A stretch of 53,490 bases of DNA from the UHGV virus genome UHGV-1366525. One strand, given 5' to 3'. Below are positions 21,451 to 21,861 of the stretch, piece after piece. Positions within the stretch are counted from its first letter, which is position 1. Each line of letters opens with the position of its first letter. Under the pieces are notes generated by a model. That model was not told the origin of the DNA, made no database searches, and was given only the letters and a program-made list of their open reading frames with translations. The DNA comes from a virus. The position numbers and the translations under genes are program-made.

Positions 21451-21861
21451 GTGAGTTTATTGAAAAAGGTATGGACGGCAAAAGATGTAGAATTTCTTCA
21501 AATGCTGATGATAGAACCTGTATCAATTTCGTCACCTATAGGTAATCCGGATACAGAGCAAGATACAGAGCTTGGAGATATGATACCAGACCAACAGCCT
21601 GGACCTGAAGAACTCGCCTCTATTGCATTTAGAAATAAGGTATTGGAAGATACAATAGAAGAATATCTTTGTCCGAGAGAACAAATTGTTATCAAGATGA
21701 GATATGGCTTGATAACAGGTCATCAGATGACTCTTGAAGAGGTCGGAGATAAGTTTGGAGTGACAAGAGAAAGAATAAGACAGATTGAAGCTAAAGCATT
21801 GAGACGATTGAAAATTGCTCTTGTAAATAGAAAACATTTAAGTTTTGGAGATATGTTATAA
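21451..21861 (+). CDS. free-standing sigma-70 C-terminal fragment (regions 3.2 and 4 only)
   Basis: [27 protein letters not shown] is nearly identical to region 4.2 of primary sigma factors (RpoD/SigA: [28 protein letters not shown]). Region 4.1 reads [15 protein letters not shown]. Region 3.2-like [20 protein letters not shown]. No region 2. The likely start is TTG at 21460 (AGGAGG at 21445). Confidence 0.85.
   Translation: [136 protein letters not shown]

Follow-up and report, generated by a model that had tools for sequence, protein, structure and literature searches.

The virus genome UHGV-1366525, a stretch of 53,490 nucleotides (nt) referred to here as the window, carries a gene (21460-21861, + strand) for a protein of 133 amino acids (aa) which by its alignments corresponds to a primary sigma factor from the last helix of region 3.1 through regions 3.2, 4.1 and 4.2. 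The sigma fragment is encoded in a replication operon and has orthologues at the same position in divergent related phages. The reading we favour, with a probability of roughly 0.4, is that it acts as a trans-acting sigma-4 module on the β-flap of the host RNA polymerase (RNAP), denying this site to sigma-A and working with a phage sigma in the switch to late transcription. The candidate for such a phage sigma is a divergent 273-aa protein encoded at 15345-16166 (+). The observation of the fragment is solid, and the mechanism is what we infer from it.

The sigma fragment gene and its family

The open reading frame (ORF) enclosing the gene extends from 21451 to 21861 on the + strand. The probable start is the TTG at 21460, preceded at a distance of 8 nt by the end of GGAGG (21447-21451), which lies in the Shine-Dalgarno sequence AAAGGAGG read at 21444-21451 (+), and the same TTG was picked by gene callers on near-identical contigs (cluster P0001, 99% identical, 53.5–54.0 kb). 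The resulting length of 133 aa agrees with the original prediction, a model's note made from the letters of the window. At the other end, the stop codon and the start codon of the following gene overlap (TAATG, with the TAA at 21859-21861), so that the two genes should be translationally coupled; the downstream product (21861-23063, +) is a DUF2800/PD-(D/E)XK nuclease according to its domain match.

The region 3.2 and 4 content of a primary sigma, also proposed in the original prediction, is borne out by Pfam, NCBIfam and structure matches. Sigma70_r4 of Pfam aligns with residues 70-118 (E 3.9e-17, 61.9 bits, cut-off 24.1), and Sigma70_r3 only with its profile positions 33-76 of 78, slightly below its cut-off (E 2.8e-5, 24.5 bits vs. 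25.3); a Pfam match to Sigma70_r2 was sought in the fragment and not found. Among the NCBIfam models the RpoD equivalogs rank first (E 3e-29 to 1e-24), followed by group 2 sigmas, RpoS, RpoH and SigK. Sigma-4 structures in the Protein Data Bank (PDB) match at E 1e-15 to 1e-24, the best match being residues 313-425 of 438 in Thermus SigA (E 9e-24). This last alignment starts at 'GWDAKRVEETLKIAQEPVSLETPIG', the last helix of region 3.1, and reaches the end of region 4.2.

Following the protein from its N-terminus (all coordinates on the + strand), residues 1-22 (21460-21525) form a family-specific segment, K-x-W/L-T-A-K-D-V-E-x-L-Q, which aligns to the last 3.1 helix, Thermus 'GWDAKRVEETLKIAQEPVSL'. 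The Sigma70_r3 and Thermus alignments place the region 3.2 linker, or 'sigma finger', at residues 23-52 (21526-21615), after which comes the family motif P-x-P-E-E-L; the aligned 3.2 loop is 2-3 residues longer than that of primary sigmas. The helix-turn-helix (HTH) domain of regions 4.1/4.2 occupies residues 53-119 (21616-21816), as assigned from Sigma70_r4 and the PDB alignments, and includes a -35 recognition helix (residues 101-113, 21760-21798) identical to that of primary sigmas in the family alignments. The C-terminal tail (residues 120-133, 21817-21858) has kept the length seen in primary sigmas. No family member has the otherwise near-universal RHPSRS after the recognition helix; other residues stand in its place, with the helix itself untouched.

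As a whole, the fragment is 45–55% identical to bacterial RpoD. The C-terminal 60 aa had been described as almost identical to sigma region 4; this holds for the 27-residue HTH, in which 23 residues are identical to what we take to be the Bacillus subtilis SigA sequence, and not for the last 60 aa, which reach about 53%. Judged from these comparisons, the fragment shares with the primary sigmas RpoD/SigA the identical -35 helix within a sigma-4 domain, the 3.2 motif, the tail length and a best match to RpoD models (E 3e-29). It differs from them in the longer 3.2 loop, the loss of RHPSRS, an identity of 32-55% across the family and the absence of regions 1.1 to 3.0, that is, of the core-binding and -10-melting parts including regions 1.1-1.2 and the sigma-2 domain. 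It also differs in being phage-encoded within a replication operon.

The absence of regions 1 and 2, stated in the original prediction as well, was confirmed with an RpoD profile built from 40 bacterial RpoD sequences and covering regions 1.2/2 to 4. When all stop-to-stop segments of at least 30 aa in the six frames of the window were searched unfiltered (hmmsearch, --max), the sole match was the fragment ORF (E 1.8e-32), restricted to profile positions 162-275 of 286, and the runner-up had an E-value of 0.92; none of the neighbouring ORFs holds an intact region 2 detectable with this profile. Had the fragment been the 3' end of a frameshifted sigma gene, regions 1-2 would have to lie at 21100-21441 (+). 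This segment encodes a DUF1599 protein (Pfam E 1e-7, above threshold), a conserved neighbour in the relatives, and so there are no sigma regions 1-2 upstream of the fragment.

A profile of the fragment family retrieves approximately 18 clusters at 90% identity (P0001–5, P0027, P0070 and P0129–139), all of them 130-144 aa long and scoring 136–204 bits, above or at the edge of the plateau of bacterial RpoD pieces (about 135 bits). The members are 37-77% identical to each other and have in common the motifs K-x-(W/L)-T-(A/G)-K-D-(V/I)-E-x-(L/I)-Q, (T/S)E(L/F)G(D/E)xI…D and P-x-P-E-E together with the recognition helix, whose core (T/S)RER(I/V)RQ(I/V/L)E is present in every one of them. In six independent lineages (40–56% identity) the gene is found in a constant slot between DUF1599 (or dUTPase) and DUF2800. 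The gene order there is (ThyX/ThyA, dCMP deaminase, dUTPase) – DUF1599 – fragment – DUF2800 – Enc34-type single-stranded DNA-binding protein (SSB) – SNF2 – D5 primase – DNA polymerase, as compared in the window and in contigs L004, L007, L038/L094, L087, L088/L089 and L096; related phage contigs with the slot are about 51–57 kb in size. Because size, N-terminus and slot are kept across such divergent clusters, the fragment is to be regarded, on comparative grounds, as a real gene under constraint.

The opposite reading, that of a remnant or artefact (the frameshifted or misassembled 3' end of a sigma gene, an attP-linked duplicate of the rpoD 3' end or a read-through extension of DUF1599), is essentially refuted by this conservation of size, N-terminus and position in some 18 divergent clusters and six syntenic lineages. 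A frameshifted or broken sigma gene was ruled out by the DUF1599 gene upstream, the single RpoD-profile match in six frames and the equal size of the orthologues, and the fragment has a strong ribosome-binding site of its own. In the window DUF1599 and the fragment do share a frame, with one TGA between them, but in the relatives the two genes overlap or lie in different frames, so that read-through or recoding is not conserved, and TGA is a normal stop which ends 17 genes. An alternative genetic code was ruled out as well, a 3221-codon ORF of the window being open under the standard code. Two further points speak for an artefact, namely that some prophage contigs in IMG/VR end in an rpoD 3' piece and that the databases contain many spurious short 'sigma' proteins. 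Set against them are the lack of any other sigma sequence in the window and the absence of the family from 185,579 bacterial genomes.

Short 'sigma' matches as a widespread family were rejected, since most of them are artefacts: the 157-aa 'MVETINK' products come from internal starts (Met of 'PVHMVETINK') in full-length rpoD, P0006 is a chimera, and the faecal 'Bacteriophage sp.' records are bacterial dnaG–rpoD contigs. Bacterial dnaG-rpoD operons are carried by three human-faecal 'phage' records (L001-L003; MT835471, MT837906 and MT836790) and by several 'Listeria/Enterococcus/Staphylococcus phage' records, which are bacterial DNA or contaminated entries. Among the family-level matches, a Rosetta-stone search gave no protein in which the fragment is joined to a sigma-2 domain. 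No description of the fragment was found in the literature searched, and no annotated family member in the databases searched.

Members of the family come from Logan, ENA and JGI metagenome assemblies only, and none was detected in the 185,579 species genomes of GTDB or in 50,697 GenBank phage records. Over the same region they are 32–55% identical to bacterial primary sigmas, whereas the bacterial primary sigmas of the fetched loci have a median identity of 64% to each other. The recent capture from the host suggested in the original prediction is therefore unsupported, the family being further from any bacterial sigma than the phyla are from each other; either the capture is ancient or the divergence was fast, as far as the alignments tell. 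For the same reason the fragment is uninformative on the host phylum, which it had been expected to indicate. The search for a donor and host gave no signal, the best bacterial matches reaching at most 54% identity in the protein search and 53% in GTDB genomes and being scattered over five phyla (Dormibacterota, several classes of Bacillota, Acidobacteriota, Chloroflexota and Actinomycetota). A Bacillota host is suggested by other features, namely the large terminase subunit (TerL), closest to Bacillus (Page-like) and Staphylococcus epidermidis phages at 33–34% identity, the AGGAGG ribosome-binding sites and the G+C content of 41%.

Four viral or prophage contigs of IMG/VR (L017, L019, L026 and L027; e.g., L017 9854-10336) end in a 3' rpoD piece in which the frame opens in region 2.4 ('..WIRQSITRAIADQ'), with phage-like genes before it. 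This suggests prophages integrated in or beside rpoD, or attP-linked duplicates of the rpoD 3' end. As a speculation, integration into rpoD is a conceivable first route by which a phage might obtain a sigma 3' fragment.

The sigma-like protein and the promoter-like motifs

The 273-aa protein (15345-16166, +) has no match in Pfam, NCBIfam, PHROGs or GenBank phages. Its family is large, with 231 clusters at 50% identity (P0228-P0376 among them), nearly all of 250–290 aa. The AlphaFold model (mean predicted local distance difference test score, pLDDT, 70.8) has an N-terminal α/β domain, a four-helix domain that is sigma-2-like, a low-confidence linker containing a 3.2-like segment, SFDAPIAETDNGEEVSLYDLLADP, and three C-terminal helices. 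In Foldseek the top six matches are all sigma factors, aligned over nearly the full target length at E-values of just 0.18–0.45, and the best PDB match of a 74-sequence profile of the family is sigma-F (1l0o_C; E 0.01), aligned colinearly in region 2.1/2.2 ('…DDLxQ…') and in region 3.2. Against RpoD, hhalign recovers the 3.2-like segment alone (SLDAPIGEDDDG…LLD.I.D; P 1.2e-3). When the C-terminal three-helix domain was modelled by itself (pLDDT 78), only weak matches (Z ≤5.1) to MarR-type HTH proteins and several sigma-4 domains resulted; it is at best a reduced sigma-4. On the model and the profiles, the protein is probably a very divergent sigma made of a sigma-2 domain and a 3.2-like linker. 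The suggestion in the original prediction of this ORF as a sigma-like candidate partner has thus gained fold and profile matches, as well as the co-occurrence of the two proteins in every lineage in which both positions are covered.

One or two positions downstream of the sigma-like gene lies a gene for a protein with a PemK/MazF-type toxin domain (16454-17140, +; E 6.5e-14), with counterparts in L004 (1125-1481) and L091 (1386-1775). As the adjacency persists in the distant L091, the sigma-like protein and the endoribonuclease may form a conserved pair.

The window represents a complete genome of approximately 53.5 kb in circularly permuted form, since a collagen-like (G-x-y repeat) gene of about 630 aa runs across its ends (1-1889 joined to 53470-53490, - strand); counterpart contigs of other samples measure 53.2–54.0 kb. 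No terminal repeat was found in the window, and among GenBank phages only the tRNAs match it at the DNA level. A + strand block at about 12.0–32.0 kb comprises early, nucleotide-metabolism and replication genes with four tRNAs. On the - strand are the packaging and structural genes, including TerL (8618-10282), the portal, the collagen-like fibre and the 3221-aa ORF; a 987-aa collagen-like tail fibre gene (1890-4853) precedes the 630-aa one.

A promoter-like motif, TTCATAATTC-N9-TGCATATAAT, occurs twice in the window (none expected). The copy at 20135-20163 (+) heads the operon of an 85-aa ORF, ThyX, DUF1599, the fragment, DUF2800 and SSB, and that at 14460-14488 (+) lies upstream of the gene block with the 273-aa ORF; at both sites the -35 position reads TTCATA, which is not consensus. 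The candidate late elements are of another type. Five copies of GTATAAAA are present, all on the - strand, and three of them are intergenic and directly before late genes: upstream of the portal gene (8421-8428) and of the first packaging-block gene (11210-11217), in both cases within TGTCGTATAAAA, and upstream of the 249-aa ORF at 50346-51095 (51182-51189). The total is not significant by itself (five vs. 2.4 expected). Late promoters of T4 are -10-only and are served by a sigma-2-like protein with a flap-binding co-factor, and the placement of GTATAAAA before three late genes suggests, by analogy, promoters of this kind, in line with the resemblance noted in the original prediction. A common motif of the type '-35 plus novel -10' was not found before the late genes. 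Over the whole window TTGACA is over-represented (69 vs. 43.6 ± 6.3 in dinucleotide shuffles, none of 100 reaching 69), an excess which may reflect codon usage.

Possible roles of the fragment

In sigma-70, region 4 sits on the β-flap tip and contacts the -35 hexamer with R584, E585, R588 and Q589, and region 3.2 runs through the RNA-exit channel in the direction of the active site. Affinity for the core is mostly due to region 2, which also opens the -10. Of these parts, the fragment has regions 3.2 and 4 and is without region 2. The recognition core (T/S)RER(I/V)RQ(I/V/L)E and the 3.2 motif are invariant in members only about 40–50% identical, and therefore both functions appear to be still selected. 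Retention of the core-threading segment together with the DNA-reading residues fits a protein acting on RNAP and DNA at once, and fits a pure plug less well. Binding to the β-flap tip is expected from homology to sigma-4.

In the favoured mechanism, the ancestor of this clade of approximately 53-kb phages, probably infecting Bacillota, would have acquired the C-terminal module of a primary sigma long ago. The fragment would be expressed from a sigma-A-type promoter along with the nucleotide-metabolism and replication genes and would bind the host core where the C-terminal part of sigma-A sits, with region 4 on the β-flap tip, region 3.2 in the RNA-exit channel and active-site cleft, and -35 reading kept. 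Host sigma-A would be deprived of the flap, the fragment would serve in trans as a 'sigma-4 subunit' for the 273-aa protein, and the polymerase would leave the host and early promoters for the late GTATAAAA-type ones of the opposite strand. The location of both phage genes behind the same promoter-like motif was counted for the partnership. Flap binding, cooperation with the 273-aa protein and the class of promoters served are all what we infer. A related reading, a 'sigma-4 swap' in which the free 3.2-4 copy displaces the corresponding sigma-A part from flap and channel or completes the phage sigma-2-type protein into a hybrid two-polypeptide sigma, is tentative and on balance doubtful. Having lost RHPSRS, the phage-made, -35-reading half would in such a swap be blind to factors acting on host region 4.

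Several observations weigh against the favoured mechanism. The 273-aa protein may be a self-sufficient sigma with its own 3.2-like segment and C-terminal domain, since Foldseek aligns nearly the whole length of complete sigmas to it, and two 3.2 segments cannot share one channel. The two genes are not neighbours: 6 kb lie between them, and each follows its own copy of the promoter-like motif. Their co-occurrence, seen in one syntenic clade, is weak evidence of a functional link. In distant members of the 273-aa family co-occurrence is largely uninformative, since the contigs were too short and the sequences of the deep alignment too diverse for their loci to be scanned; the 8.4 kb downstream of one such member (25% identity) contain no fragment. 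Given this member and the disparity between 231 clusters at 50% identity and some 18 at 90%, the fragment is not an obligatory partner of the 273-aa family. Finally, no TTGACA-like hexamer is present at the -35 of the candidate late promoters and no exact TTGACA in the true intergenic regions of the window, which leaves no obvious place on the phage genome where the -35-reading helix would be used.

Precedents for the favoured mechanism are two-polypeptide sigmas and the stand-alone late activators of the LtrA type (PMC3753634) discussed below. One two-polypeptide sigma is formed by gp55 and gp33 of T4, of which gp33 is unrelated in sequence to the fragment and does not bind DNA. Another is SigO-RsoA of B. 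subtilis (PMC7826278). In these systems a flap protein in the region 4 position works with a sigma-2-like protein; the phage, too, encodes a sigma-2-like protein and has late motifs that look -10-only. In contrast to SigO-RsoA, the partner genes are apart (6 kb) and the 273-aa protein keeps a 3.2-like segment and a C-terminal domain. Unlike T4 gp33, the fragment retains the -35-reading residues in every member, from which DNA binding can be argued on sequence grounds.

Among the alternatives, it is conceivable, if rather doubtful, that the fragment is a competitive inhibitor of host sigma-A, filling the flap and exit channel and/or binding -35 hexamers while free, for host shut-off and the early-to-late switch. 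Promoters that depend on sigma-A and a -35 would be blocked, and phage promoters without a consensus -35 or using the phage sigma would escape. The fragment retains the flap-, channel- and -35-binding parts without the DNA-opening region 2, and the longer 3.2 loop might plug the channel. As the phage promoters lack a consensus -35 (TTCATA at 14460 and 20135, none before GTATAAAA), a TTGACA reader would see mainly host promoters. A flap-bound copy that reads the same -35 could, however, simply take the place of sigma-A region 4 with no inhibition at all; it would also compete weakly, since the core affinity of sigma resides mostly in the missing region 2, and a plug of flap and channel would hamper the phage sigma too if the same sites were used. 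Nor would a pure flap competitor need strictly conserved DNA-reading residues. Phages with their own sigma usually carry a sigma-A inhibitor at the region 4/flap interface, T4 AsiA being one such protein. SPO1 Gp33 wedges between β and sigma-A region 4 (PMC13401047), and Thermus phage gp39 is reported to target the interface of sigma region 4 and the β-flap (PMC3950348). Like the fragment, these three are small proteins directed at the sigma-A region 4/flap site and come from phages with a sigma of their own; they are not sigma homologues, whereas the fragment copies the sigma part itself.

An unlikely alternative in our estimate, for which a known family serves as precedent, is a site-specific regulator of the LtrA type (Quiles-Puchalt et al., 2013; PMC3753634), the HTH then being the DNA-binding domain of an activator or repressor at one or a few phage promoters, independent of the 273-aa protein. 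LtrA proteins are likewise small (about 134 aa) and stand-alone with a C-terminal sigma-4-like HTH, they are encoded by phages of Gram-positive hosts, and their control of late transcription was shown experimentally; LtrA of Staphylococcus aureus phage 37 (ORF044, YP_240149, 134 aa) activates the terS late promoter (PMC3753634). ORF044 aligns to fragment residues 40-120 at 26% identity (pairwise BLASTP E 1e-5), its sigma-4-like part also being C-terminal, and the fragment matches phrog_36, 'transcriptional regulator', at E 4e-8. The similarity of LtrA to region 4 is marginal, with only weak Pfam matches for ORF044 (Sigma70_r4 at 16.9 bits vs. 61.9 for the fragment, DUF1492 and r4_2), its recognition helix is a different one and region 3.2 is missing, whereas the fragment keeps both the primary-sigma helix and region 3.2. 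LtrA-type genes are located directly upstream of terS, and the fragment gene sits between DUF1599 and DUF2800 in the replication module, some 10 kb from the terminase and on the opposite strand. Moreover, tblastn of the fragment against the 50,697 phage records gave sigma genes and not Ltr genes. Still another role, that of a decoy for something that targets region 4 of host sigma-A, appears quite improbable. The target might be a host defence protein or regulator, or else a phage anti-sigma-4 factor to which the fragment, without RHPSRS, would be an immune replacement. The family-wide replacement of RHPSRS next to an intact recognition helix fits this idea, as does the closely similar sigma-4 domain in the defence-system protein MzaA (NCBIfam E 3e-23), but no candidate binder was identified in the window, for which no dedicated PADLOC or anti-defence search was made.

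Further features of the genome and significance of the fragment

An intergenic palindromic element of approximately 95 nt is present in five copies (8507-8592, 20012-20097, 31614-31699, 41709-41794 and 48454-48539), located in early as well as late blocks. Its arms, GGATTTTAAGATATAATAGAG and CTCTATTATATCTTAAAATCC, are invariant and at a fixed offset of 74 nt (10 arm matches vs. 0.83 expected), the interior is variable yet self-complementary, and the predicted RNA folds have energies of -28 to -44 kcal/mol (z -3 to -7). The element contains TATAAT and is absent from L004, L007 and L038; it could be a processing hairpin of RNase III type, a bidirectional terminator or a promoter-bearing repeat.

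An AT-rich palindrome of about 440 bp (13550-13990) lies upstream of the gene at 14072, between divergent gene blocks, and two paralogous early genes (12001-12420 and 14564-15004, +), each 36% identical to the same L038 ORF, are found on either side of it. The same regulatory region between the blocks holds three tandem copies of TTTGGTAGTTTGTTGGTTTATATG (11340-11410), and in it a 26-nt inverted repeat (11676-11701 with 12840-12868) flanks a 1.2-kb stretch of unusually high G+C. The palindrome, the tandem copies and the inverted repeat may represent an origin, iterons or structured RNA. Several small Cys-rich, zinc-ribbon-like ORFs occupy 12435-13297.

Four tRNA genes (Pro-TGG, Met-CAT, Thr-TGT and Gln-TTG; 23666-24065, +) lie between SSB and the early genes that follow. 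A 197-aa protein encoded between primase and DNA polymerase (29031-29624, +) matches weakly the catalytic domain of lipoate-protein ligase A/B (E 2.6e-6, 28 bits vs. 27), which is unusual for a phage replication module. The 3221-aa ORF (31964-41629, -) takes up 18% of the genome and has no sequence match in Pfam, PHROG or PDB and no DxDxD motif; a 3180-aa orthologue, about 50% identical at the C-terminus, is found at the same position in relatives. Its size is similar to that of the virion RNA polymerases and ejection proteins of N4- or crAss-like phages, but nothing else links it to them and a role as virion RNA polymerase is unsupported.

Phages are known to redirect the host RNAP with whole sigmas, with unrelated small proteins that act against region 4 and the flap, or with activators that weakly resemble sigma-4. 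A fourth route would be a conserved phage gene for just the C-terminal third of the housekeeping sigma, complete with the -35-reading residues and the core-threading linker. Stand-alone sigma-4-like phage regulators such as LtrA and split sigmas were already known; what is new is a conserved, primary-sigma-derived 3.2+4 module with an intact -35 helix, encoded in a phage replication operon beside a cryptic sigma. As the clade has no cultured or annotated member, the biology of the fragment and the 273-aa protein is invisible to annotation pipelines. The 273-aa proteins themselves, with their 231 clusters at 50% identity, constitute a large group of divergent sigma-like proteins that had gone unrecognised. 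If the fragment were merely an LtrA-like regulator, it would extend a known class modestly. These phages offer a natural test of whether sigma domains can act in trans on the polymerase, and of how a phage sigma, a poor competitor of sigma-A, reaches the core. The sigma-4 swap, if true, would be the first natural case of a primary-sigma domain used in trans as an exchangeable subunit of RNAP.

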